Of a DNA stretch of 64,000 nt, positions 5,211 through 26,255 are shown in pieces (positions within the stretch are counted from its first letter, which is position 1; each line of letters opens with the position of its first letter). The DNA lies in NCBI GenBank assembly GCA_934097105.1, contig CAKONI010000001.1, positions 7,204 through 71,203 on the forward strand, written 5' to 3'. The notes under the pieces are model-generated. The model was not told where the DNA came from. It saw nothing but the letters and a program-made list of their open reading frames with translations, and did no database searches. The DNA is from an uncultured Bacilli bacterium (GTDB lineage: Bacteria; Bacillota_I; Bacilli_A; RF39; UBA660). A program made the position numbers and the translations under genes.

Positions 5211-7734
5211 ATATTTGAGTTTCTAGGTGTTTTAGTTTTTCTTCTTCTTCTTTTAGTTTTTGTCTATCTAAATCTACTACATTTTTTGGTGCTTTGTTTG
5301 TGTAGTTTTCGTTTGATAATAGTTTTTTTCTTTTTTCTATCGATTGTTTTAGGTTTTCTATTTCTTTTATTAACAATTCTTTGTTAATTTCTTTTCCTTT
5401 TTGATAGAATGTTATGTCTATTATGTTTGATTTGTAGTTGTATGCTTTGATGTTTTCGTCTTTTGGGATTTCTGTTTCTTTTAGTTTTAGGGCAAAGGTG
5501 TAGATTTTTTTATATTTACTTTCTATTTGTACTTGTGCATCTTTTGTTATTTCGTTTACTACTTTTAGATTTCTTATGTTTGTTATGTCTTCGATTATTT
5601 TGTCTATTAGTTCTTCTTCTTTTGTGTAGATTTTGTTTTTATCGTAAACTGGATATTTACTTATCATTATGCTTTCTTCTTGAAGTGGTAATTTTTGATA
5701 TATTTCTTCAGTAACGTATGGCATGAATGGATGTAACATTTTTAATATGTTTGTTAGTACTTCTAGGAGTACTGTTTTTGTTGAATTCTCTTGTAATGAG
5801 TTTTTTGATAGTTCTATGAAGTTGTCGCAGAAGTCTTCCCATATGTGTTTGTATAGGGCTCCGCCGGCATTGTTGAATTCGTATTTTTCCATGTTTTCTG
5901 TTACTTCTTTTATTGTTTTATTTGATTTTGTAAGTATCCATTTGTCTATTTCTGATAGGCTTTCTAAGTTATAATCTTCTTTTTTGAAGTCTTCTAGGTT
6001 CATAAGTACGAATCTTGAGGCGTTCCATAGTTTGTTGATGAAGTTCCATGTTGATTTTACTTTTTCTTCGTCATATCTTAAGTCCATTCCTGGGGCGGTG
6101 TTTGTTGTTAGGAAATATCTTAGGGCGTCTGCGCCATATTTTTCTATTACGTCCATTGGATCTACACCGTTTCCTAGTGATTTTGACATTTTTCTTCCTT
6201 GTTTGTCTCTTATTAGACCGTGGATTAGGCAGTCTTTGAATGGTCTTTGATTTGTGAAGTGTAGGCCTTGAAATGCCATTCTGTTTACCCAAAATGGTAT
6301 TATGTCGTATCCTGTTACTAGGACGTTATTTGGATAATATCTTTCTAGATCTTTTGTTTTTTGTGGCCAGCCTAGGGTTGAGAATGGCCAAAGTGCTGAG
6401 GAGAACCATGTGTCTAGTACGTCTTCGTCTTGTTTCCAGCCTTCTCCTTCTGGTTTTTTTGTTCCAACATAAATTTCATCATCTTTGTACCATGCTGGAA
6501 TTCTGTGTCCCCACCAAAGTTGTCTTGAGATGCACCAGTCGTATGTTATTTCCATCCAGTGGTTCATTGTTTTTTCATATTGTTTTGGTACGAAGTTTAC
6601 TTTTTTGTCTTTGTTTTTTTGGTTTTCTAGGACCTTGTCTGCTAAAGGACGCATTTTTACGAACCATTGTTTTGAAAGGTAAGGTTCTACCATTACTCCG
6701 GTTCTTTCTGAGTGTCCTACGTTGTGAGTTATTTCTTCTATTTTTATTAGGAGATTTTGCTCTTTTAAATCTTTTACTATTTCTTCTCTTGCTTTAAATC
6801 TATCTAATCCTTGGTATTTTCCGGCTTTTTCGTTCATGCTTCCGTCTGGATTTAGAATATTTATTCTTTCTAGGTTGTGTCTGTTTCCTACTTCGAAGTC
6901 GTTAGGATCGTGGGCTGGGGTAATTTTAACTACTCCGGTTCCAAATGCGGGATCGGCGTGTTCGTCGCTTATTATTGGTATTTTTTTGTTTACTAGTGGT
7001 AGTATTACGTTTCTACCTATATATTTTTTGTATCTTTCATCGTCTTTATTTACTGCGATGGCAGTATCTCCGAGTAGGGTTTCTGGTCTTGTTGTTGCGA
7101 CTTCTAGATATTTGTCTTCATCTTCTAGATAGTATTTTATGTGATAGAATGCTCCTTTTGTTTCTTTATATATTACTTCTTCGTTTGATAGAGCGGTTTT
7201 GGCTTCGGGGTCCCAGTTTATTATTTTTTCTCCTCGGTAGATTAGTCCTTCTTCATATAGTTTTATGAATACGTATTCTACTGCTTCGGATAGGCCTTTG
7301 TCTAGTGTGAATCTTTCTTTTTGATAGTCTAGTGATAGTCCTAGTTTTGACCACTGATTTCTTATGTTTTCTGCATATTCTTCTTTCCATTCCCAGGCTT
7401 TTTCTAGGAAGCCTTCTCTACCTAGTTCGTATTTGTTTATTCCTTCTTGTTTTAATTTTGCCACTACTTTTGCTTCGGTTGCTATGGCAGCGTGATCCAT
7501 TCCTGGTAGCCAGAGAGCGTCGAATCCTTGCATTCTTTTGTATCTTATTATTATGTCTTGGATGCTTGTGTCCCAGGCGTGACCTAGATGTAATTTTCCT
7601 GTTACGTTTGGTGGTGGTATTACTATACAGAATGGTTCTTTGGTTAAGTCTCCACTTTTAAAGTAGTCTTTTTCTAACCATGTTTTGTATTTGTTTTCTT
7701 CTACTTGTTTGTGATTATATTTTTTATCTAACAT
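5209..7734 (-). CDS. valS: Valine--tRNA ligase
   Basis: 841 aa with the class I HIGH-type motif ([13 protein letters not shown]) and KMSKS ([13 protein letters not shown]), plus a C-terminal coiled-coil. It is preceded by a T-box leader. Confidence 0.95.
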
Positions 7735-7741
7735 TTTACCT

Positions 7742-8010
7742 CTCCTTTTTAAAATAAAAAGATAGTACCTAAAGGACGAGTTTTTCCCGTGGTACCACCT
7801 TAATTTGTAATTTTTATTACCTTATTTATTTAACGCATAATTACGTATTATTCTACTTTGTTCGAATAATCAACTCAAAAGCTACATTCAATTACTTTGT
7901 ATATTAGTTTTCACCTTACACTAACTCTCTTTGATACTTGGTAATTTACTCCTCTTTTTCTTTGTCTTTAACTTAATTGATTTGATATGCTTTCTATTTG
8001 TCCTGCGACG
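7742..8010 (-). promoter_or_regulatory. T-box riboswitch leader of valS
   Basis: The minus strand at 7787-7806 reads AATTAAGGTGGTACCACGGG, matching the conserved T-box sequence AAUUAGGGUGGUACCGCGG. A T-run and the AGGAGAGG RBS follow before the valS ATG. Upstream on the minus strand there is an AGAGAG box and a candidate specifier AAGUAAU (GUA, Val). Confidence 0.6.
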
Positions 8011-8089
8011 ATTAATATTATCATTAATATGAGAAAAGCAAATATTAAGAATGCCATCATACTCCAGCCTTTGTTATTTAATTTCATTA

Positions 8090-9007
8090 TTATCCTTCTT
8101 TCATATCTTTGATGCAGGATACTGCTGAAAGTGCTCCATCTGAGGTTGCTGTTACGATTTGGAATACTTCTTTTTTGACAACATCTCCGGCAGCATATAT
8201 TCCTTTTATTGATGTCCTTTTTTGTTCATCTACTATAATATAACCTTTTTCGTCTAAAATATCAAGGTTTTTTAGAAATTTTGTTGCTGGTTCGTATCCT
8301 ATAAATATGAAGCAGGCTTTGGTTTGTAGTGTTTTTGTTTCATTATTTTCTCTTATGGTTACTGATGATAAGATGTCTTCTTCTTTGTTGAAGTTTTCTA
8401 CTTCGGCATTATATATTATTTTGATATTTTTTGTTTTTAGTACTTCATCTATTAGTATTTTGTCTCCGCGAAGGGAATTTTGTCTATTTATGATGGTTAC
8501 GCTTTTACATATTTTTGATAGGTATAGGGATTCTTCTAGGGCACTGTTTCCTGCTCCTACTATGGAGACGTCTTCGTTTTTATAGAGGTTGCCATCGCAT
8601 AGTGAGCAGAAACTTATTCCTTTTCCTTCGAGTGATCTTGAGTTTTCTTTTTCTAGTTTTTTTGGACTTCTTCCTATGGCTAGGATTATTTTTTTTGTCT
8701 TTATTTCTTTTCCGTTTGATAGTTTTATTATTTTATGTTCTTCTTTGTTTTCTATTTCTACTACTTCTGAATAGATTTGCTCTATTTGTAGTTTTGTTAG
8801 TTGTTTGTGTAAGTTGTTTGCTAGTTCTGGGCCTGTAATTTGTACTATTCCTGGGTAGTTTTCTACTGTTGATGTTTTGTTTATTTGACCTCCGGGCATT
8901 TCTTTTTCAATTACGCAGCAGTTTAATTCTGCTCTTTTTACGTAAATTGCGGCGGTTACTCCGGCTGGGCCTGCTCCGATTATGGCTACGTCATAGATTT
9001 CTTTCAC
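8090..9007 (-). CDS. trxB: Thioredoxin-disulfide reductase
   Basis: 305 aa with an N-terminal FAD-binding GAGPAG, the redox-active CSLCDG (CxxC) motif, and a second nucleotide-binding GAGNSA. Confidence 0.9.
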   Translation of the reverse strand: MKEIYDVAIIGAGPAGVTAAIYVKRAELNCCVIEKEMPGGQINKTSTVENYPGIVQITGPELANNLHKQLTKLQIEQIYSEVVEIENKEEHKIIKLSNGKEIKTKKIILAIGRSPKKLEKENSRSLEGKGISFCSLCDGNLYKNEDVSIVGAGNSALEESLYLSKICKSVTIINRQNSLRGDKILIDEVLKTKNIKIIYNAEVENFNKEEDILSSVTIRENNETKTLQTKACFIFIGYEPATKFLKNLDILDEKGYIIVDEQKRTSIKGIYAAGDVVKKEVFQIVTATSDGALSAVSCIKDMKEG

Positions 9008-9788
9008 TTTTTTTCATTCCTTTCTTTTCTTTTTTGTGGTTGTACACTAATAAGAGGATTCCTGCTAGGAATAGAAGTGCTGATATTAATTGTGCTATTT
9101 TTATGTTTCCTAGCATTAGAGAGTCTGTTCTTAGTGATTCGATTATGAATCTTGCTAGTGAATACCAGATGAAATATATTGCTGTTAGGGTTCCTGGTTT
9201 TGTTTTATGTTTTTTTCTTAATATTATTAAGAGGATAAATCCTAAAATGTTCCATATGCTTTCGTATAGGAATGTTGGGTGGTAGTAGGTTCCCTCTATT
9301 TCCATTCCATTTATGATTGTTTTTGGTATGTGCATTTGTTCTAGGGTTTCTTTTGCTGCTTTTATTCCATGGGCTTCTTGGTTGAAGAAGTTGCCCCATC
9401 TTCCTATTGCTTGGGCGATTATTAGTCCTGGGACTGCTAAGTCGAATATTTTTAGGAAGTTTTTTTTGTGTTTTTTACAATAGTATATGAACCAAATTGC
9501 TCCGGATATTATTGCTCCGTGGATTGCTAGGCCTCCGTTCCATATTTCTATTATTTGTATGGGATTTTTTGTGTAATAGCCTAGATTGAAAATTACGTAG
9601 TATAATCTTGCTCCGATTATTCCGAATATTATTCCGTAGAAAATTAGGTTTGTTAGAAATTCTTCTTGATATCCGGCTTTTTTTGCTGATTTTAGAAAAA
9701 TGTATGATCCTGTTAGGATGGCTAAAAACATAATTATTGAATACCAATATATTGAAATTGGACCGATTTCTAGGGCTATTTGGTTCAT
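8991..9788 (-). CDS. lgt: Prolipoprotein diacylglyceryl transferase
   Basis: 265-aa polytopic membrane protein carrying the Lgt signature GRWGNFFNQEAHG. It overlaps the trxB start by 17 nt. Confidence 0.9.
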   Translation of the reverse strand: MNQIALEIGPISIYWYSIIMFLAILTGSYIFLKSAKKAGYQEEFLTNLIFYGIIFGIIGARLYYVIFNLGYYTKNPIQIIEIWNGGLAIHGAIISGAIWFIYYCKKHKKNFLKIFDLAVPGLIIAQAIGRWGNFFNQEAHGIKAAKETLEQMHIPKTIINGMEIEGTYYHPTFLYESIWNILGFILLIILRKKHKTKPGTLTAIYFIWYSLARFIIESLRTDSLMLGNIKIAQLISALLFLAGILLLVYNHKKEKKGMKKSERNL

Positions 9789-14862: not shown

Positions 14863-15618
14863 TTACTTTATTTTGTTTATTAGTTCTTCTAATTTATCAT
14901 TTGTTTTTAATCTATAGTGTCCGGTTACTTTCATTTCTGTTTTTTCTAGTCTGTCTTCTTCTTTTTGTTTTTGGGTTTCATCTCTATTTTGAATTAAGTA
15001 AGGTACACCATTTTTGTTGTATTTATCTGATACCATGGCGATGTGGGCTGAGTTGTCAAATGTTAGGATGTCTCCGGGCATGAAGTTTTTTGTGTCGTAG
15101 ATATCTGTTGTTAGAGATTCTGTATATTTTTTAAAGAATATTTCTTGATTTTCTACTCTTCTAAAGTCTATATTATCGTCTTGAATTTCTATATTATAGT
15201 CTTTGCTGTTGTCTTTTATATCTTGTGATATCATGCTTTTTAAATCATAACCGGCTTCTTTTAGTGCATACCATATTAAATCTGTACATACTCCTTCTTT
15301 TTCTACTGGTGGATATCCATTTGCATAGTAATTACTTTTGTATGTTGGGTTTAATTTTGCATATTTTTTTTCACCGATTAGGATGTCTTGGTAGTCTTCT
15401 ATGCCATTGTTGTTGTAGTCTTTGCTACTTTTTTCTTTTATATATCCAAAGTCTGATAGGTTGTAGTAGTCTTTTTTGGTTTCTACTTGTTTTAGAGTTT
15501 TGTTTGATGTTAAGTAATAGTTTATGGCTACTGATAGTACAAGTAAAAAGATTATTGATACAAATAGTATGGTTACTTTTTTTATTTTTGGCTTTAGTTT
15601 TCTTTTTTTTCTTTTCAT
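14863..15618 (-). CDS. Membrane-anchored protein, possibly DUF1287-like
   Basis: Lys-rich N-terminus plus one TM segment, then a domain with GVCTDLIWYALKEAGYDL. I recognise this by eye as resembling the DUF1287 motif, without certainty. Confidence 0.35.
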   Translation of the reverse strand: MKRKKRKLKPKIKKVTILFVSIIFLLVLSVAINYYLTSNKTLKQVETKKDYYNLSDFGYIKEKSSKDYNNNGIEDYQDILIGEKKYAKLNPTYKSNYYANGYPPVEKEGVCTDLIWYALKEAGYDLKSMISQDIKDNSKDYNIEIQDDNIDFRRVENQEIFFKKYTESLTTDIYDTKNFMPGDILTFDNSAHIAMVSDKYNKNGVPYLIQNRDETQKQKEEDRLEKTEMKVTGHYRLKTNDKLEELINKIK

Positions 15619-17674: not shown

Positions 17675-18292
17675 TTATCTTTTTCGCACTTTATTTTTTT
17701 CTTTGATATATAGGTATTCTTCGATGTGATATTGATGGTTTATATCATGAATGTCTTCAATTTCTTGAAGTTTGTTGTACATTTTCATGAAGACTATGTT
17801 AAATGGTTTGTAGTAACTTCCTGAGTTTCTAAATCTTATTTGTATTTCTTTGTGAGGGTGATTATCTTCTTTGTGATCTTTGATAGGATTTTGGGATAAA
17901 AATTCTAGCTTGAAACTATTTTCTAGTTTTTTTATTTTAAGGATGCTTGCTATTTTGTGCAAATCTTCATCGGAGTACCAGGTGATTGTTTTTTGCTCTT
18001 TATTGAATAGTTCATTATAATTTGAAAGGTTATATTTGTGATATTTTTCTGGGCCTTCGGAAGTGTGTGTTTTACTTATATTAGCATTTTTAATGTCTTT
18101 ATAAAGTTTGTTAAATAGGTTATATAACTCATAGTTTTCTTTGGTTATAAAAAAATAATTAGATTCTGGTGAGGAATTATTTGATTTGTTTTCAAATTCC
18201 CAATATAAATCGTCGTTTCCTCTTAAGAGGATTGTTAATGTTTTTTCTTTGTCTATGAGGATTATTTCATTTTCTTTTTTTATAATTTTCAT
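17675..18292 (-). CDS. Hypothetical 205-aa protein
   Basis: Clean ORF divergent from the amidoligase-like gene. No family recognised. Confidence 0.45.
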   Translation of the reverse strand: MKIIKKENEIILIDKEKTLTILLRGNDDLYWEFENKSNNSSPESNYFFITKENYELYNLFNKLYKDIKNANISKTHTSEGPEKYHKYNLSNYNELFNKEQKTITWYSDEDLHKIASILKIKKLENSFKLEFLSQNPIKDHKEDNHPHKEIQIRFRNSGSYYKPFNIVFMKMYNKLQEIEDIHDINHQYHIEEYLYIKEKNKVRKR

Positions 18293-18427
18293 GTGCTTTT
18301 CTCCTTTATTTGGTTTTATTTATATTATAGCAGATATTTTTATTTTTGGATGATTTACTGTATTTTTTCAAATTGACAAAGTAATATTGCTATGTTATAT
18401 TAAATATCAATTTAATGGTGATATATA

Positions 18428-20134
18428 ATGGATTTTGAAAGAGATGATTCTTTTTATGATATTGATTTAACTAATTGTCATACTAGAGAGGAAAGAATTA
18501 AGAAAATTATTGAAAATAAAATGCTTGATTATTTGTTTTCTTTTTTAAATGATGATGAAAAGGATGAATATTATATTTTTTTGAGTTATAATCGTTTGTA
18601 TAATTATTTATCTAGTAAGACGGAGGACTTTGTTTTTAAGCATTTGACTAATCATTTTGATAGACTTAGTGAATATGATATTGTTAAATTATTAGATTTT
18701 ATTGATAATGATAAACTAAAGTTTAAAATTATAGAAAGGCTTATTGAAAATGATTACATGTTTTTTATAGAGATTGCTTCTAAGAAGATTGATAGTGATC
18801 TTTATAAAATTAAAGTAATTGAGTTGTTAATAAAAAAAGAGGTTTTTAGTTTGACGTATGCTCCCATTGTGGGATCTTTAGGGAGTGATGAGAATAAAAA
18901 ATTGTTTTTTCCTTTTCTTTCTTTATATGAAAGAGTTAATTTAATTAAAGATTTTTCTGATAAGTCTTTAATTAAAGAGTTTGCTTTGAATGAAGAGTAT
19001 TTTGATTTTCAGTCTGATTTAGTTATTGCTACTTTTGATAAGGATTTTATTAGGGAAATGTTTTTAAATGTAAAGGTTCCTGTTTTTAGGAATAATGTTA
19101 TTAATAAGATTGATGATTTGGTGTTTAAACTTGAATTAATAAATTTACTGGATGATAAGAATGTAAAGAATTTCTTTTTATCTAATTTTAGTGATTTTTC
19201 AAAGGATTTTTTAGTTGAGGTTGATGATGAAGATTTTAATGAGGATAGGGTTGATAGGAATATTACTATAGGTGTGGAACTGGAGTGCGCTAATGAGGGG
19301 ATTATGAATTTTGAGGAAATTAATAGTATTTTTGAGGATTTTATGATTACTGGTGATATTAGTGTTAAAAATGGTTTTGAAATTGTTTCTCCGATTCTTC
19401 ATTATACGAGGGAGGATATGGGAAAATTAAAGTCTGTTTGTGAGTTTTTAAAAAAATGTGATTTTTATACAAATAGTTCTTGTGGTGGACATATACATAT
19501 TGGTGCGGATTATATAAAAAATAGGAATGAGTTGTATATGCTTTTGTATTTATATAATAACTGTGAAAATATAATATATTTGATTTGTAATAGAGAGCAT
19601 TCTAGGTCTAGGAGGAATATTAATAAGTATGCTAAAACTACTAAGAAGGCTTATTTGGAGGCTTGTGGGAGTAATTTGTTAAATGGAAATTTAACGAATG
19701 AGGAAACTGTCAGAAAAATAGTTGGTATTAATACTTCGCGTAATATGGGGCTTAATCTTATAAATATAAATAATAATTTTAAGCATACGATTGAGTTTAG
19801 GATGCCTAATGGGGAGATTGATTTTGAGGAGTTATTATGTAATATTAGGTTATTTGCAATGCTTGTTCAAAGATCATATGAACTTGCTAATGATATGCTT
19901 TCAAGTGAAAAAAAGGATTTGGTAGAGAAATTAAGTCATCAAATGCCTGAGAGTAAAAGACTGGAGATATTTTTAAATATTTTGTTTGATAGTGAAGAGG
20001 AGAGGGATATTTATTATAAGAGATATCATTCGAATATTTCGTTTATAAAGTCTATGTCTAATAAGTTGTTTTATGGTAATGGGGAGTTTTTACAAATAAA
20101 TGATGATAGTAAGAGATTGTCTTTAAAGAAGTGA
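18428..20134 (+). CDS. Protein with C-terminal amidoligase-like (glutamine-synthetase/GCS2-fold, Amidoligase_2-type) domain and ~270-aa N-terminal extension
   Basis: Residues ~280-480 carry an ordered motif series: GVELECAN, then GFEIVSPIL, then SCGGHIHIGADY, then TIEFRMPNGEID. This series is characteristic of carboxylate-amine ligases of the GS/GCS2/Amidoligase_2 family. The N-terminal half is acidic and Phe/Leu-rich with a repetitive feel. Confidence 0.55.
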   Translation: MDFERDDSFYDIDLTNCHTREERIKKIIENKMLDYLFSFLNDDEKDEYYIFLSYNRLYNYLSSKTEDFVFKHLTNHFDRLSEYDIVKLLDFIDNDKLKFKIIERLIENDYMFFIEIASKKIDSDLYKIKVIELLIKKEVFSLTYAPIVGSLGSDENKKLFFPFLSLYERVNLIKDFSDKSLIKEFALNEEYFDFQSDLVIATFDKDFIREMFLNVKVPVFRNNVINKIDDLVFKLELINLLDDKNVKNFFLSNFSDFSKDFLVEVDDEDFNEDRVDRNITIGVELECANEGIMNFEEINSIFEDFMITGDISVKNGFEIVSPILHYTREDMGKLKSVCEFLKKCDFYTNSSCGGHIHIGADYIKNRNELYMLLYLYNNCENIIYLICNREHSRSRRNINKYAKTTKKAYLEACGSNLLNGNLTNEETVRKIVGINTSRNMGLNLININNNFKHTIEFRMPNGEIDFEELLCNIRLFAMLVQRSYELANDMLSSEKKDLVEKLSHQMPESKRLEIFLNILFDSEEERDIYYKRYHSNISFIKSMSNKLFYGNGEFLQINDDSKRLSLKK

Positions 20135-20155: not shown

Positions 20156-20182
20156 AGTTATTAACAGGTTTTGTTAATAACT
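20156..20182. terminator. Bidirectional hairpin terminator (palindrome copy A)
   Basis: The arm AGTTATTAACA (20156-20166) pairs perfectly with TGTTAATAACT (20172-20182) around a GGTTT loop. An A-run precedes it and a T-rich tract follows. It sits between convergent genes. Confidence 0.5.
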
Positions 20183-21591
20183 TATTTTATTTTTGATTTT
20201 ACTTTATCGCTTGAAATTCTAGTGTTGTTTGCTCCATCCATTCTGGAGTTTGTAAGTCTTGTTTTTTTCTTTATGAACTGGTCATATTTTTGCAGGTTGG
20301 TCATATTTGTTTTTGTTTCTGTTTCATGACCGTGTCTTGCTCCGGTGTTTCTATATTTAGCATAGATTATTCCGTAGTAGATGAAACCACTTGCTAGAAA
20401 TATATATGGCCAATCATTGTCATCGCTTAGAGTTAATAGCATTAATATTAATCCTAGAATTTCTACGAGTAGTGAAATTATTAATAGTTTTGGAATGTGA
20501 ATTGGTACACTTCCCATTGTTTCTTTTGTTCTTGCATTTACTGCAACATAATGGAGCATACTTTTTCCATTTTTCTTTTCTTGTCTATAACTATAAAGCC
20601 ATACTGGTAGATATGCTGATTTCCATGTTTGTCCTTTTATTTGTAAATCTTCACTGTTCCATTTTACTCCGCGATCGTATTGTGTTAGAGTTTTATTTGC
20701 GGTGAATCTTGCTATGTCTTTTGATTGGGCTAAGACTAGTTCTTCTAGGTCACTTACGTTTGTATCTCTTTTTTCTGATGTATAACCTTTTATGTAATTT
20801 GAGTCCCATTTTACGCAATTTTCAGTATCAAATGGCATAATTGAATTTATTATGTTTGTTGTTTTGTCGCTTGAGTTTGTGTTTAATTTGTCTTTGCTGG
20901 ATTCTACTGTTAAGCCTTCGATTGTGAGATCGAATTCTCTTTTTACATCGTATAAGTCAGCATCGTAGTATGTTGTTTCTTGGTCTCCATGTTTTTCAGT
21001 ATAACTTCTTACTTCGTGTTCTCCTTGGCCATTTAAACTGGCATGAGTGTTTTCATCTATAATCATGTAGGGAAAGTAAACTCCCATTACGTTTTCTGCT
21101 TTAAATTCTCTTTTGAATTTTGGATGAGCATAGAATTTTCTTTTTCCTACGAAGTCTTTTATTAGTTCTTTGGCATCGTTTTTTGTTAGTTTAAAGGGAA
21201 GAACTGTATCTGGTACGGCACCGTTTGGAAGTTTGTTGTTTATTGATAGTGTATTTCTGCACCAGTGACATCTTGATTGTGTGCTTGCTGAGGTGTCTAT
21301 TACGACTTCTGCTCCGCAACTGGTACATTTTAGCGTTAGCATATCACTTTCACTTGCTATTATATCTGTTGCACCACTTCCTATTGTTTTTCCTTCTAAT
21401 TTACTTAGGTCTTTTGTTTCTTGTTCTAGTTTTTCTGGGTCAAATTCGTGTCTACAAAAGTTACATCTAAGTTTTCCATTATTTGTATTTAATGATATAT
21501 CTGTTGCGCCACATTTTGGACATTTGGTTTGTCCGTCTATGGCATTTTTATTTGTTTCTTCTATCTTTACTTCTTCTTTATTTTCTTCCAT
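20182..21591 (-). CDS. Double zinc-ribbon membrane protein (YdjG-like)
   Basis: The N-terminus has two Cys4 ribbons: CPKCG..CNFC and CTSCG..CHWC. A large middle domain follows, then two C-terminal TM helices (IPKLLIISLLVEILGLILMLL..IFLASGFIYYGIIYA) and a basic tail. It starts 5 bp after the upstream gene. Confidence 0.65.
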   Translation of the reverse strand: MEENKEEVKIEETNKNAIDGQTKCPKCGATDISLNTNNGKLRCNFCRHEFDPEKLEQETKDLSKLEGKTIGSGATDIIASESDMLTLKCTSCGAEVVIDTSASTQSRCHWCRNTLSINNKLPNGAVPDTVLPFKLTKNDAKELIKDFVGKRKFYAHPKFKREFKAENVMGVYFPYMIIDENTHASLNGQGEHEVRSYTEKHGDQETTYYDADLYDVKREFDLTIEGLTVESSKDKLNTNSSDKTTNIINSIMPFDTENCVKWDSNYIKGYTSEKRDTNVSDLEELVLAQSKDIARFTANKTLTQYDRGVKWNSEDLQIKGQTWKSAYLPVWLYSYRQEKKNGKSMLHYVAVNARTKETMGSVPIHIPKLLIISLLVEILGLILMLLTLSDDNDWPYIFLASGFIYYGIIYAKYRNTGARHGHETETKTNMTNLQKYDQFIKKKTRLTNSRMDGANNTRISSDKVKSKIK

Positions 21592-21595
21592 GTTA

Positions 21596-22747
21596 CTACC
21601 CCAATAATTTCTTTTTTGCTTCGTCGAAATCTTCTTGAGAGATTACACCGTCGTCTAATAGTTTTTTCATTTTTGTTAATTTTTCATATGGATCTTCTTG
21701 AGCGTTTTGTGTATTATTTACTGGTTGATTGAATGCTCCCATGGCTGCTCCGGCGGCGTTTACACCCATTCCCATGAATGCCATGCCAGAACCTCCGTTT
21801 TGACCTGCTGCTTCGAAGCCACGTGCCACTGATTGTTGCATGAATGAGTTTCCTCTGGCTCCAGAAAGGGCATCTGCTTTTTTAACATCACTAAGTAATT
21901 TTTTAGTATCATCATCGTATTCTATTGCTGTTATAGCAACTTTTTCTATTTCTAAACCTCTATCTGATTTCCATTTGTAAGCGTCTTCAACTGCTTGTGA
22001 TAGACTTTGAGCGAATCCTATTTGGTCTCCTTGAATTTTTGTTATGCGGTTTCCTTTGCTTGGATCGTTTGTATAGTTTGAAAATGCTGCGGATAGGCTT
22101 CCTACTACTTCATTAAATAGTTGTTCTCCGGCGATGTTTTCCATGTCTGCGAAATCGAATACTTCGCTATCTGGTCTTAGGTATGATGCTGGTACGAATT
22201 TTTTTACAAATAAAATTGGGTCTACTATTTTTAATGTATATGTTCCGCGTGTTATTGCTCCGGCTTGTGTTCCTAGGAATGCATCATCCCAGAATATTTC
22301 TGATTGAGTTCCGAATCTGTTTCCTGGTATTTCTTTTAAGTTTACATAAAATACTTGTTGTTCTCCGCCAGGTACTCCACCGAATTTAAATCTTTCCCAT
22401 GATGTTTTTAGTGTTGATGATAAAATGCCATCTCCGGCGAAGAATGATTTTGAATTTTGATCATCACTTTTAAATGTGAAACCTCCTGGTTCTGTTATGC
22501 ATCCAGTTATTTCTCCATCTTGCATTGTTATTAGTGCTGTTCCTTCTGGAACGATAATTTTACTTCCATTTGTTATAATATTTTCTGATCCTTTTGTGTT
22601 TGAACCACGACCATTGTCAGTTCCTTTTTTTACTCCTGCATATAATCCTGCAGTTGCTGATATGTCTGTTCTTGGTCCGATAAAGTCTTTCCATTCATCA
22701 GCGAATGTTCCTCCGATTGCTCCGCTAAATGCTTTGATAAATCCCAT
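21596..22747 (-). CDS. YdjI/COG4260-family (SPFH-like, 'virion core protein'-annotated family) protein with C-terminal SHOCT domain
   Basis: The N-terminus FIKAFSGAIGGTFADEWKDFI..KIIVPEGTALITMQDGEITG parallels the Bacillus YdjI N-terminus (..VEWEEFRD..LIIRPGQDAVFLNNGRVEG). A Gly/Ala/Met-rich linker follows, and the C-terminus KLTKMKKLLDDGVISQEDFDEAKKKLLG is a SHOCT-type motif. Confidence 0.6.
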   Translation of the reverse strand: MGFIKAFSGAIGGTFADEWKDFIGPRTDISATAGLYAGVKKGTDNGRGSNTKGSENIITNGSKIIVPEGTALITMQDGEITGCITEPGGFTFKSDDQNSKSFFAGDGILSSTLKTSWERFKFGGVPGGEQQVFYVNLKEIPGNRFGTQSEIFWDDAFLGTQAGAITRGTYTLKIVDPILFVKKFVPASYLRPDSEVFDFADMENIAGEQLFNEVVGSLSAAFSNYTNDPSKGNRITKIQGDQIGFAQSLSQAVEDAYKWKSDRGLEIEKVAITAIEYDDDTKKLLSDVKKADALSGARGNSFMQQSVARGFEAAGQNGGSGMAFMGMGVNAAGAAMGAFNQPVNNTQNAQEDPYEKLTKMKKLLDDGVISQEDFDEAKKKLLG

Positions 22748-22958: not shown

Positions 22959-23600
22959 GTGATTGGAATGAATAAGAGAAAAAAAATAATTATTATTGAG
23001 GATCAAATTATTTTAAAGGATACGCTTAAAAAAGTAATTTCTAATTCATATGATGTTGCTGCGACGGCTTTGTCTGCGAAAGATATGATGGAACTGTGCA
23101 ATAAATATAAGCCTAATATTGTATTAACTGATATATGTACTCAGGAGGGTTTTAGTGGTATTAAAAATGGAAAAAAGGTAAAAGAAAAATATGGTAATTC
23201 TATAAAAGTTGTTGCAATGACTGGGATGCAAGAAATTACATTTTTGGATGAGGCTAAGAATGCTAATCTTGATGGGTTTATTTATAAGAATATTGATTCT
23301 GATACACTTCTTTCTATAATTGAACAAGTGCTTAGTGGATATAAATTGTTTCCTGATAATGTCACTGTTAAGAGAGAAAGTGCTAATTTAAAAAAACTTA
23401 CTAATAGGGAAATTAAGATTTTGACTCTTTTGTGTTCTGGCTTGGAACGTGAGGATGTTGCGGATGAGATTAATATAACGACTGGGACATTAAAGAATCA
23501 TATATCTTCTATTCTTAATAAAATGGAGTTTGATAGTTTGTCTAAGTTGCTAGTTTTTTGTGTTAGTAATGGTTATATTGTTCCAAATTTAAAAGACTAA
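22959..23600 (+). CDS. Response regulator, NarL/LuxR family
   Basis: REC domain (IIIIEDQ, phospho-acceptor in NIVLTDICT, conserved T in VVAMTG and K in FIYKN) plus a C-terminal LuxR HTH (LTNREIKILTLLCSGLEREDVADEINITTGTLKNHISSILNKM). The true start may be the ATG at 22968. Confidence 0.85.
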   Translation: MIGMNKRKKIIIIEDQIILKDTLKKVISNSYDVAATALSAKDMMELCNKYKPNIVLTDICTQEGFSGIKNGKKVKEKYGNSIKVVAMTGMQEITFLDEAKNANLDGFIYKNIDSDTLLSIIEQVLSGYKLFPDNVTVKRESANLKKLTNREIKILTLLCSGLEREDVADEINITTGTLKNHISSILNKMEFDSLSKLLVFCVSNGYIVPNLKD

Positions 23601-23619
23601 GTTTACCCTTTTTTTGTGT

Positions 23620-24741
23620 TTAAATTTCTATTTTTAATGTGAATTTGTTTTTATAATCTATGGTTAGAGTTCCATTTATTTCATTTAGTTTTCTTCTCAT
23701 TCCTTTTATTCCTTCATTTTCTTTTACTTTTTTTGTAGGGAGTGTGCCATCATTTGTAATAATCATTGTATTTTTGCTTATATCTATATTTATATTTCTA
23801 CTACCTCCATGAATAATTGCATTTGTTATGGATTCTCTAATTATTTCATAGAATATTTTTTGTATATTTTTTTCTTTAGAGAGACTCCCTTTTATATTAA
23901 TATTTATTTCTAATACTTTGTATATTTCTACTAATCTGTTTAGTTTTTTAGTATAATTCGTTTCTTTTTGATCTTCGGCAAATAGGTTATCTATCATGAA
24001 TTTTATGTCGTTGATGTTTGTTTTTTTGTTATTTAAGTAACTTTTGAATAGTGATAATCTATGTCCTAATAAATCATGGAATTCATTTTTTATTTTTGTA
24101 AGGTTTTTGCTTTTTTCTATTTGTTCTATGTTATTTAAGTTTTTTTGTATTTTTTTATTGTACTTTTTTATTTTTTTATTTTGGTTTTCATATTCTATAT
24201 TTAACTTATAGATATCTGTTATATCAATTGCCACTATTTCTTTATTGTTAAATGTTTTTATTTGCCATATTTTGTCTATACATTTTAGTAAATATTCTTC
24301 ATTTATTATTTTGAAAGATTTTTTTTGGAAGTTTTTTATGAAGTCTTTTTTTATATTTAATTCTTTTAAAATGTTTTCCATTGTTTTGTTTATTAGGAAA
24401 ATATTTTCTTTTTTATCTAGGAACATTATTCCATTATTTGATTTATCTATTGCATTCTTTATTGATAATATGGATATCATTTTTTTATTGTTTATAAGTT
24501 GTAATAAAAATGAAATTAGTACATATACAATAGTTATTATTGATGTCCAGTAGCAGAATTTGTTTATTTTGTTTGTGCTTGTGTAGTCCATGTTTATATA
24601 GCACGAGTAAATCATAAGTATTAGTATTAGTATTTCTATTAGTACTTTTGCTATATTTTTTTCTTTTTTTAATAAGAGTATGGAAACTCTATAAACTTGG
24701 AATACTAATGTGATTGATAATATGCCTATTATTAATCTCAT
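23620..24741 (-). CDS. Sensor histidine kinase, HisKA_3 (NarX/DesK/LiaS-type)
   Basis: Three N-terminal TM helices; H-box EFHDLLGHRLSLF; HATPase N-box ESITNAIIHGGS and G-region GIKGMRRKL. It is convergent with and 19 bp from the RR gene. Confidence 0.8.
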   Translation of the reverse strand: MRLIIGILSITLVFQVYRVSILLLKKEKNIAKVLIEILILILMIYSCYINMDYTSTNKINKFCYWTSIITIVYVLISFLLQLINNKKMISILSIKNAIDKSNNGIMFLDKKENIFLINKTMENILKELNIKKDFIKNFQKKSFKIINEEYLLKCIDKIWQIKTFNNKEIVAIDITDIYKLNIEYENQNKKIKKYNKKIQKNLNNIEQIEKSKNLTKIKNEFHDLLGHRLSLFKSYLNNKKTNINDIKFMIDNLFAEDQKETNYTKKLNRLVEIYKVLEININIKGSLSKEKNIQKIFYEIIRESITNAIIHGGSRNINIDISKNTMIITNDGTLPTKKVKENEGIKGMRRKLNEINGTLTIDYKNKFTLKIEI

Positions 24742-26255
24742 GATGTCACCTCTTTTTTTATTTTAAATGTTAGTTCTGTGTCAGTGTCATAGTTTTTCTT
24801 TATGAAATGTATGTTTTTGGGAAGTTTTGGTTTTTCTATTTTTGTTGTGCCTCCTATAATGAATTTTACTTTTATATTGTTTTTTTCTTCAGTTATAAAT
24901 ATAATAATACTGGTATTTTTGATGTTTTTTAGTGTTTCAAATGCTATATCATAAAGAAGCGATGTTTCATAACTTTGAATTTTTATTTCATTTGTTAAGA
25001 CTTCTCCGGTTATTTTTTGAAAGGAAAAGTCAGTAATTAATTCTTTTAGGAGAATATTTATACTTATTTTGTTATATGTTTCATTGTTTAACTCTGATAT
25101 AATAAGATAACTTTTTCTTTTACAGTATGAAATAAGCACTTTTATATATTCTAAATCTTGTTTCGTTAATTCCTTTTTATTTAGTATTTCTTTTGCTTCT
25201 GATTTTTTTTCTTTCATGTTATTTTCAAGTTTTGTTATTATTTGTTTTCTTAAGGTTATTTGGTATAATTCTTTTTTTATTTGTTCTTCATTTTTCAATT
25301 TTTCTTGAATTTTTAGTAGTTCTTTTTGTTTTGATTTTATTTCATTTTTTAATTCATTTATTTTTGTTATATCATTTCTTAGTAAAATATAACTATCTTT
25401 ATTGTGTATTAGATTATATGTTGTATTTTTTTCTTTGTATGTTTTTTGTGCTTTGTTATTTTTTAGGTCATTATATATGTTTTTTGGTATTTTGTAGAAT
25501 GATTTTGTTTCATAAATTGTGTCTATATTTTCTGATATTACAATCATGTCTAAATGGGAGTTTGTGAATGTTTTTTTATATTTGCTGTTACTGGATATTA
25601 GTCCTAAATAGAGGATGAGTTCTATTCCTAAGCATATTAGAGTGCTTAGTATTACTGATAGGTTACTTTTTCTAAATATTGGTAGACCTTTTATATAAAA
25701 ATATGTATAAAGGAGTCCTAGTACTAGTAATATTAGAGGTAAAAAGGCTTTCGGGGTGTTTTTTTCTTTTATTTTATTTATTGCTAGTTTTATTAGTCCT
25801 TTTCCGAATAGGTAAAAAATCCATATGCAAGTTATGTAATATCCTATGAAGTGGTTATAGTCGTCGAAGTATTCTTTTCCTTTTGGAAATTTGAAGGCAA
25901 GTTCGTGGATATCATTTGTGAGAATTAGTCCTAGTAAGAGAAATGAAATTGTGTAAATTATTATTTTTCTTTTTTTAGTTATTTTGTTTAGTAAATTTGA
26001 GATACAAATATAAAAAAGTGTTGGAGTAAAAATTAATGGTAAATAGTATAAGTACCAAAATAGTCTTTCGAGCTGGCTTGATGTTACTATTCCCTTTCCT
26101 ATTCTTATTAACATCCAAAAAATAATTAAGATACCGATTGACATGATGTATTTTTTTACTTTTTCATCGTATAGTTTATAGTATAGTCTAATTGTCCAGA
26201 AACTGAAGATAATTAGAAATATTAGTGTTTCTTGTAATTTTAGCATAAAATGCAC
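24738..26255 (-). CDS. Polytopic membrane sensor-like protein with degenerate kinase-like C-terminus
   Basis: About 7 TM helices in the first 230 aa, then a long Lys/Glu coiled-coil, then a C-terminal region laid out like the adjacent kinase. It lacks the H-box His and the N/G-box motifs. Its stop overlaps the kinase start (ATGA). Confidence 0.55.
   Translation of the reverse strand: MHFMLKLQETLIFLIIFSFWTIRLYYKLYDEKVKKYIMSIGILIIFWMLIRIGKGIVTSSQLERLFWYLYYLPLIFTPTLFYICISNLLNKITKKRKIIIYTISFLLLGLILTNDIHELAFKFPKGKEYFDDYNHFIGYYITCIWIFYLFGKGLIKLAINKIKEKNTPKAFLPLILLVLGLLYTYFYIKGLPIFRKSNLSVILSTLICLGIELILYLGLISSNSKYKKTFTNSHLDMIVISENIDTIYETKSFYKIPKNIYNDLKNNKAQKTYKEKNTTYNLIHNKDSYILLRNDITKINELKNEIKSKQKELLKIQEKLKNEEQIKKELYQITLRKQIITKLENNMKEKKSEAKEILNKKELTKQDLEYIKVLISYCKRKSYLIISELNNETYNKISINILLKELITDFSFQKITGEVLTNEIKIQSYETSLLYDIAFETLKNIKNTSIIIFITEEKNNIKVKFIIGGTTKIEKPKLPKNIHFIKKNYDTDTELTFKIKKEVTS

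Follow-up and report, generated by a model that had tools for sequence, protein, structure and literature searches.

The stretch of DNA analysed here, referred to as the window, comprises 64,000 nucleotides (nt) from an uncultured Bacilli bacterium of the RF39 lineage (contig CAKONI010000001.1 of assembly GCA_934097105.1, positions 7,204 to 71,203). It encodes a 568-amino acid (aa) protein, here termed a solenoid-amidoligase, in which a glutamine synthetase (GS)-like amidoligase domain is preceded by a long helical solenoid and followed by a conserved C-terminal extension. The complete coding sequence (18428..20134, + strand) begins with ATG and is supported by its open reading frame (ORF), a match to the Pfam family PF12224 (Amidoligase_2), its homologues and an AlphaFold2 model. 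It is a real gene and not a chance ORF, because 193 homologues were found. A second gene, encoding 205 aa (17675..18292, - strand), is divergently transcribed from it at a distance of 135 nt, and both ORFs lie where a preliminary description of the locus had placed them. The enzyme type itself is known, but neither Pfam nor the literature searched describes the solenoid module, the C-terminal extension or this combination of domains.

The amidoligase domain and its C-terminal extension

The catalytic domain (residues 273-480; 19244..19867, + strand) was assigned from its Pfam profile match, from conservation and from fold matches. The match to PF12224 has an E value of 2.3e-18 and a score of 67.4 bits, compared with a gathering score of 22, and it spans residues 314-477, corresponding to positions 73-242 of the 245 in the profile. 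Four motifs on which the preliminary description had relied occur in the order that it gave: GVELEC (282-287), GFEIVSP (316-322), SCGGHIHIG (351-359) and TIEFRMPNGE (454-463). They were expected within the last ~200 aa of the protein, but are found instead at residues 280-463, ahead of a conserved 88-aa extension. Across an alignment of 15 homologues with 34-51% identity to the window protein, residues E284, E286, E318, H355, H357, R438, E456 and R458 are invariant. An AlphaFold2 model of the whole protein built from this alignment (mean predicted local distance difference test score, pLDDT, 88; predicted template modelling score 0.77) has a GS-like fold with the conserved residues E-x-E, E, H-x-H, R and E-x-R, and places the catalytic-type residues on beta-strands 280-288, 316-320, 354-359 and 454-459. 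The assignment of the protein as a GS-fold carboxylate-amine ligase of the Amidoligase_2 branch is therefore supported by the profile score, the invariant residues and the fold matches. The absence of a profile match, or active-site residues that could not be fitted to the fold, had been named in advance as grounds for abandoning this assignment; neither was encountered. Judged by these residues, and by analogy with related enzymes, the GS-like domain appears catalytically intact and is predicted to catalyse ATP-dependent amide formation.

The only meaningful Foldseek matches in the PDB are YbdK/GCS2 (1r8g and 1tt4; probability 1.0), glutamine synthetase (8fbp) and PafA (4bjr; probability 0.90). 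A fold search of predicted viral structures returned 41 matches at E < 1e-3, and those with names are mostly annotated as amidoligases. Beyond PF12224, no Pfam family was matched by the 568-aa protein at E ≤ 1, and searches against NCBIfam (E ≤ 1), PHROGs and PADLOC identified zero families. Searched against PDB sequences, the profile of the family found no relative, not even YbdK. The earlier classification of the enzyme as GCS2-type thus holds in part: the protein shares a GS-like core with YbdK, its best match among solved structures, but does not belong to the GCS2/YbdK profiles of Pfam or NCBIfam (PF04107, COG2170), and the structural alignment has 10% identity and a target TM-score of 0.35-0.41. 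YbdK is a single-domain protein of ~370 aa. The likeness to PafA and glutamine synthetase is one of fold class and of a presumed acyl-phosphate mechanism, with weak matches (E 0.03-0.2). Unlike PafA and Dop, the window protein lacks a PF03136 match (Foldseek E 0.22) as well as a Pup gene or proteasome context, and unlike glutamine synthetase it lacks the GS oligomerisation domain.

The C-terminal extension (residues 481-568, 88 aa; 19868..20134 including the stop codon, + strand) begins beyond the end of the Pfam model. It is modelled as helices and a terminal beta-hairpin, and residues L512, L516, L519, F520, Y529, R532, Y533 and N536 are invariant among the 15 homologues. The extension and the amidoligase domain occur together in almost every complete relative, and the extension is specific to the solenoid-amidoligase family. 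Potentially this extension may add to substrate docking.

The solenoid module and the distribution of the family

The N-terminal region (residues 1-272; 18428..19243, + strand) is an all-alpha solenoid of ~8 helical hairpins, as indicated by the AlphaFold2 model, DSSP and profile relatives. DSSP identifies 19 short helices and zero strands, and alternate helices of the model start 24-30 aa apart. No named repeat family (e.g. HEAT, ARM, TPR, Sel1 or LRV) matches residues 1-272 in Pfam at E ≤ 1, and Foldseek matches of this domain to solenoids have probabilities of 0.06-0.2. The large, uncharacterised N-terminal region noted in the preliminary description is thus present, and it is no oddity of one gene. 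It is conserved throughout the family in the 15-homologue alignment, and therefore defines the family rather than having been added in a single genome. The description of this region as acidic applies to the window protein (isoelectric point 4.6, net charge -20) but not to the family, in which net charge ranges from -20 to +9. We therefore rejected acidity as a functional clue, whether to a DNA mimic or to a binder of basic substrates.

A search of 1.84 billion representative sequences with a profile of the N-terminal region identified 97 cluster representatives. Most share the order solenoid, amidoligase, C-terminal extension, with solenoids of variable length in proteins of 458-970 aa. The same solenoid occurs in 15 long proteins (922-1664 aa), where it precedes three mutually unrelated C-terminal modules that have no Pfam family (represented by P0129, P0132, P0165 and P0171; by P0133, P0161, P0188, P0204 and P0139; and by P0149, P0170, P0175 and P0189). 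The representatives named measure about 700-1660 aa. Relatives with overt repeats lack Pfam matches (P0129, P0132, P0133, P0139 and P0149) or have a borderline match to DUF4476 only (P0148), and P0139 contains near-perfect 26-aa tandem repeats. A compositional artefact behind the repeat-profile matches was rejected, as reversed or locally shuffled targets gave none. As read from the sequence, the terminal G-S-x-G-R-G...D-F-D of P0129 is reminiscent of a motif of polymerase-beta-type nucleotidyltransferases; a PDB sequence search with the P0129 C-terminus returned no match.

The 193 homologues of the window protein were found among 5.8 billion proteins (best E = 0); most of those listed are full-length, at 545-590 aa, and all listed homologues carry PF12224 according to precomputed data. 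Some clusters of the family at 90% identity contain hundreds of member sequences. A scan of GTDB with one genome per species identified 40 amidoligase loci, mostly in uncultured gut Bacilli and Clostridia. The records of the Bacilli loci are named 'uncultured Bacilli', 'Tenericutes' or Clostridium sp. CAG:628, 609 and 571, and a few of the 40 loci are on contigs of metagenome-assembled genomes labelled Fusobacterium or Bacteroidales. Assemblies at NCBI and ENA contain the identical protein without a name. One full-length member of the family, P0345 (577 aa; cluster of P0059), is named 'uncharacterized protein YbcV (DUF1398 family)' by one public source. This label agrees with no domain found and is probably a mis-annotation. 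No full-length relatives were found in 50,697 phage records. A prophage or mobile-element origin of the gene was rejected given the lack of tRNA genes, of a PHROG match and of a close phage homologue.

Some genomes have more than one copy of the gene. Two full-length solenoid-amidoligases are arranged head-to-tail in loci L006, L007, L009 and L049 (e.g. 5001-8522 in L049), and copies occur on separate contigs of one genome in the pairs L026/L029, L030/L035 and L020/L025.

Expression signals and neighbouring genes

A predicted sigma-70-like promoter precedes the amidoligase gene (18373..18401, + strand). It consists of TTGACA, a 17-nt spacer and TATATT with a TG extension, matches the consensus at 11 of 12 positions and is the top sigma-70-like site in a 3-kb scan. 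A Shine-Dalgarno-like GGTGA (18417..18421, + strand) is followed 6 nt downstream by the ATG. Beyond the stop codon is an AT-rich, perfect 9-bp hairpin (20157..20181, not assigned to a strand), composed of GTTATTAAC, a 7-nt loop and GTTAATAAC, with T-runs on both strands. It likely acts as a bidirectional terminator between the amidoligase gene and the convergent gene downstream, and was not flagged by the terminator scan because that scan demands at least 3 G-C pairs. Given its own promoter, Shine-Dalgarno sequence and 3' hairpin, the amidoligase gene looks monocistronic and independently transcribed.

The 2-kb block containing the gene has a GC content of 0.255, the minimum of the neighbourhood, and window-wide only positions 24001-26000 (0.224) are lower. 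The amidoligase gene is one of few on the + strand amid genes that are mainly on the - strand, which likely causes a local spike in GC skew. The intergenic regions around it measure 95, 135 and 47 nt, and an Rfam scan of such regions gave only a chance sub-threshold match to a snoRNA. We saw no tRNA or mobile-element genes near the amidoligase. The preliminary description had proposed a search of the neighbourhood for a small peptide or carrier substrate; no gene for a small peptide, carrier or Pup-like tag adjoins the amidoligase.

The divergent 205-aa gene encodes a member of a conserved orphan family with more than 125 homologues, a length of 200-240 aa and the motifs GGNGDLYW, ITKENY, ITWYSDE, RFRNSGSxYxPFN and HQIHIEEYLY. 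It has no Pfam, PADLOC or PHROG family, and no fold in the PDB matches its AlphaFold2 model (pLDDT 79) at E < 0.1. The gene exists as first described, but it is not a conserved partner. Only relatives of 88-98% identity have it beside the amidoligase; homologues of 40-50% identity directly follow rplM-rpsI, and no amidoligase is found within 6 kb of them (L044-L048). Because none of the 40 GTDB amidoligase loci contains the family and because of its position after rplM-rpsI elsewhere, we consider the 205-aa gene a bystander.

Downstream and convergent with the amidoligase is a pair of genes (20182-22747, - strand) encoding a 469-aa zinc-ribbon protein and a 383-aa SPFH protein. The former carries a pair of zinc ribbons at its N-terminus and hydrophobic segments towards its C-terminus, and it has weak matches to PDC-S64, a phage-defence candidate of PADLOC (E 3e-5), and to phrog_4875; the latter combines SPFH (Band_7_1) and SHOCT domains. 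A three-gene sensor block on mixed strands follows (22959-26255), comprising genes for a LuxR-type response regulator, a 373-aa protein and a 505-aa membrane protein that weakly matches HisKA_7TM. In a 98%-identical relative, the regulator has Response_reg and GerE domains, whereas the 373-aa protein, which is encoded on the opposite strand, lacks a family match. The zinc-ribbon, SPFH and two-component genes are as the preliminary description had them, and are common only to close relatives of the window. The zinc-ribbon/SPFH pair is a bystander.

PF12224 was reportedly defined by Iyer, Abhiman, Burroughs and Aravind in 2009 (Mol Biosyst 5:1636) as a family of putative phage and bacterial amidoligases, and its neighbourhoods are said, there and in the Pfam description, to include genes for a GAT-like thiol peptidase/amidotransferase or an AIG2/gamma-glutamyl cyclotransferase. 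Examples of PF12224 amidoligases with classical partner genes are found in LUZ24-like phages (PMC3890496), OM43 phages (PMC10580990) and C. clostridioforme prophages (PMC11318856). Typical members of the family have 250-500 aa and accompany glutamine amidotransferase, COOH-NH2_lig, ATP-grasp or gamma-glutamyl cyclotransferase genes. The window protein resembles them in scoring above the profile threshold, in the same ordered acidic, His and Arg motifs and in the fold of the 41 predicted phage structures. It differs in being chromosomal, in lacking those partners and in having a 272-aa solenoid and an 88-aa tail. Specifically, neither GATase or AIG2/gamma-glutamyl cyclotransferase partners nor the COOH-NH2 ligase and ATP-grasp partners were found among the neighbours in the window, in five Pfam-annotated contexts or in the leading families of the 100 genes nearest to the amidoligase across loci. 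The classical partner neighbourhood is a contextual trait of PF12224 and does not define the family by sequence.

Several uncharacterised proteins adjoin the amidoligase in other genomes. Proteins of ~555 aa with two Rx4H motifs (RNKIAH and RNSISH) do so in two lineages, in L001, L002, L006, L007, L009 and L049 (e.g. 7971-9635 and a neighbouring copy in L001, 1008-4341 in L007 and 3273-4946 in L049), sometimes as two copies beside two tandem amidoligase paralogues. A weak match of the ~555-aa protein to PF18736 (pEK499_p136 HEPN) in precomputed data was not reproduced by hmmscan, and the possibility that the c3 neighbours of this type share the solenoid was rejected, as they have no such module. 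In the Clostridia subfamily, a ~145-aa protein, c1, always flanks the amidoligase (11 loci: L021, L022, L025, L027, L030, L031, L033, L034, L036, L037 and L038; e.g. 6017-6941 in L022), and c9 (~140 aa) occurs in five loci (L020, L021, L022, L030 and L031). Neither c1 nor c9 has a Pfam family or is related to the 205-aa protein, for which remote kinship was rejected (hhalign probability 0.2%). They may be dedicated partners or substrates of the amidoligase.

Candidate substrates and rival explanations

We suggest that the product of the window gene is a stand-alone, cytoplasmic enzyme that joins a carboxylate to an amine at the expense of ATP, and that its solenoid docks a substrate bearing a peptide. 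A cell-wall peptide or precursor is the leading candidate, and we hold the chances of this proposal to be about even. No signal peptide or hydrophobic N-terminal segment is obvious in the 568-aa protein when its sequence is read by eye. By analogy with related enzymes, the central GS-like domain would bind ATP and two divalent metals through its E-x-E, E, H-x-H and E-x-R residues. It would then phosphorylate the carboxylate of the substrate to an acyl-phosphate, as in GS, GCS2/YbdK and PafA, and transfer of the acyl group to an amine would yield an amide or isopeptide bond. GS and PafA act through an acyl-phosphate mechanism. The solenoid is most likely a substrate-docking or targeting module that would keep a polymeric substrate, or one with a peptide, in place at the active site. 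It is conserved, variable in length and reused with other enzymatic heads, and therefore best explained if it docks a substrate that is large or linked to a polymer, and not a free amino acid; its fusion to three other unrelated C-terminal modules is what would be expected of a domain for targeting or an adaptor. We are least certain of the substrate class, for which we propose the carboxylate of a peptidoglycan stem peptide or cell-envelope precursor because of the genes that recur beside family members.

For the neighbour comparison, loci were collapsed to 29 non-redundant groups. Among 100 genes within two positions of the amidoligase in these groups, the few families seen more than once include Peptidase_S11 (twice) and VanY (twice). 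VanY adjoins the amidoligase divergently in L001, L002 and L004 and convergently in L024 and L028, and is two to three genes away in L010 and L012. Peptidase_S11 is co-directional in L008, L010 and L012 and convergent in L015 and L016. An Ig-like protein with a sub-threshold NlpC/P60 match is near the amidoligase in L007, L009 and L013, and in L017 a DUF1287 gene (7006-7749) is directly upstream with an M23/PcsB-like hydrolase after the amidoligase. In one Clostridia group, a sortase and a GT2 glycosyltransferase are beside the amidoligase. The 150 control genes at a distance of at least four positions in the same loci included no peptidoglycan-peptidase family with two or more members, in a search that is blind to single-member families. 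For five peptidase families, 18 of 19 copies in the loci are no more than three genes away from the amidoligase, some divergent, some convergent and some co-directional, as counted with hidden Markov models (HMMs) built from genes already seen beside the amidoligase and for families noticed post hoc. The recurrence of peptidoglycan peptidases near the amidoligase in the Bacilli subfamily is therefore suggestive, and modest.

In addition to these limits on the counts, a number of findings weigh against the proposed function. The uvrA and uvrB genes are also recurrent neighbours, several of the groups being related Bacilli that share uvrA/uvrB synteny, and part of the peptidase pattern may therefore be inherited synteny. 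About half of the groups with the full-length Bacilli form have no adjacent envelope gene (L003, L005, L011, L014 and L052/L053). In the window itself, the nearest such peptidase gene, a DUF1287 gene with a weak CHAP-like match (14863-15618, - strand), adjoins uvrB and is three genes from the amidoligase. All of the neighbouring peptidases act outside the membrane, whereas the amidoligase looks cytoplasmic. As no demonstrated substrate for any PF12224 member was found in the literature searched, only the fold serves to predict the chemistry. The description of the solenoid as a repeat structure draws on the model and on overtly repetitive relatives because the units of the window protein are too diverged by sequence: its internal repeats are insignificant, leave-one-out HMMs of the units perform no better than shuffles, and a repeat HMM from P0139 fails to detect repeats in it.

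The main rival is a protein-modifying ligase, in which the solenoid would bind a specific cellular protein and the GS-like domain would ligate an amino acid, amine or peptide to a carboxylate of a side chain or the C-terminus, similar to pupylation by PafA or glutamylation by RimK, without a dedicated tag gene. Alpha-solenoids are typically protein-binding scaffolds, PafA is among the fold matches (see above), the variable length of the solenoid and its reuse with other enzymatic heads fit this function, and no metabolic operon surrounds the gene. However, the three short intergenic regions around the amidoligase gene hold no Pup-like or other small tag gene, the Bacilli subfamily has no conserved protein partner and no target can be named, and we regard this explanation as possible but not probable. 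Even less probable is an anti-phage or inter-bacterial conflict enzyme, located in a variable defence island and derived from phage-type amidoligases, that would modify a component of the invader or the host. Phage amidoligases are the closest structural relatives of the window protein, and the diverged tandem paralogues of several genomes, the ~555-aa two-Rx4H neighbours with their weak HEPN match in precomputed data, the PDC-S64-like gene next to the amidoligase and the low local GC content could be read in the same way. Such a role is poorly compatible with the absence of a PADLOC or PHROG match for the amidoligase itself, of a full-length homologue in the phage records and of nearby mobile-element or tRNA genes, as well as with the HEPN assignment that hmmscan did not reproduce; in addition, the position near uvrA/uvrB is kept across diverged genomes, which suggests vertical inheritance.

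We consider it very unlikely that the enzyme is a YbdK/GCS2-type ligase of free amino acids, making gamma-glutamylcysteine or a similar product, with extra domains that are merely structural. YbdK is the top PDB fold match, but no GCS2/YbdK profile is matched at E ≤ 1, the low identity and the empty PDB profile search argue against it, and a family-wide 272-aa solenoid is hard to explain with a free amino-acid substrate. The possibility with the least credence is that the amidoligase and the 205-aa gene form a functional two-gene unit of an enzyme and its substrate or regulator. The two genes share the 135-nt divergent promoter region and the pair is kept in the close relatives, yet the neighbourhood data described above have already largely refuted this idea, given the absence of the 205-aa family from all GTDB loci and its occurrence elsewhere without an amidoligase nearby, and the small partner proteins c1 and c9 of Clostridia show no kinship to the 205-aa protein.

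The stem peptides of peptidoglycan are decorated by ligases of the ATP-grasp and Mur types, among them D-aspartate ligase and MurT/GatD. The role that we propose for the solenoid-amidoligase, in which ATP would drive the formation of an amide at a carboxylate or amine of the stem peptide, would be similar to theirs by analogy only, and the location of amidoligase loci near DD-carboxypeptidases and endopeptidases fits this role. Unlike those enzymes, the window protein has a GS-like fold and not an ATP-grasp or Mur fold.

A broader and more speculative hypothesis, which we think doubtful, is that the ~26-aa hairpin solenoid is an undescribed targeting module of gut Firmicutes that brings at least four enzymatic heads to one polymer, and that the amidoligase decorates carboxylates of peptidoglycan stem peptides or precursors. 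The four heads would be the GS-fold amidoligase, a polymerase-beta-like nucleotidyltransferase-type head and two others. If this were true, the enzyme would be a counterpart of MurT/GatD or D-aspartate ligase on a different fold, and the first substrate would be known for any PF12224 enzyme. PF12224 is widespread in phages and bacteria, and the solenoid-amidoligase family represents a tractable single-gene version of it, with a built-in solenoid that presumably binds the substrate, and is abundant in uncultured human-gut Bacilli. The identity of the solenoid ligand could reveal the substrate class for the whole amidoligase family, and could also explain three other families of giant unannotated proteins with the same module. 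If the link to the cell wall is true, these small-genome gut bacteria would possess an unrecognised modification of peptidoglycan.

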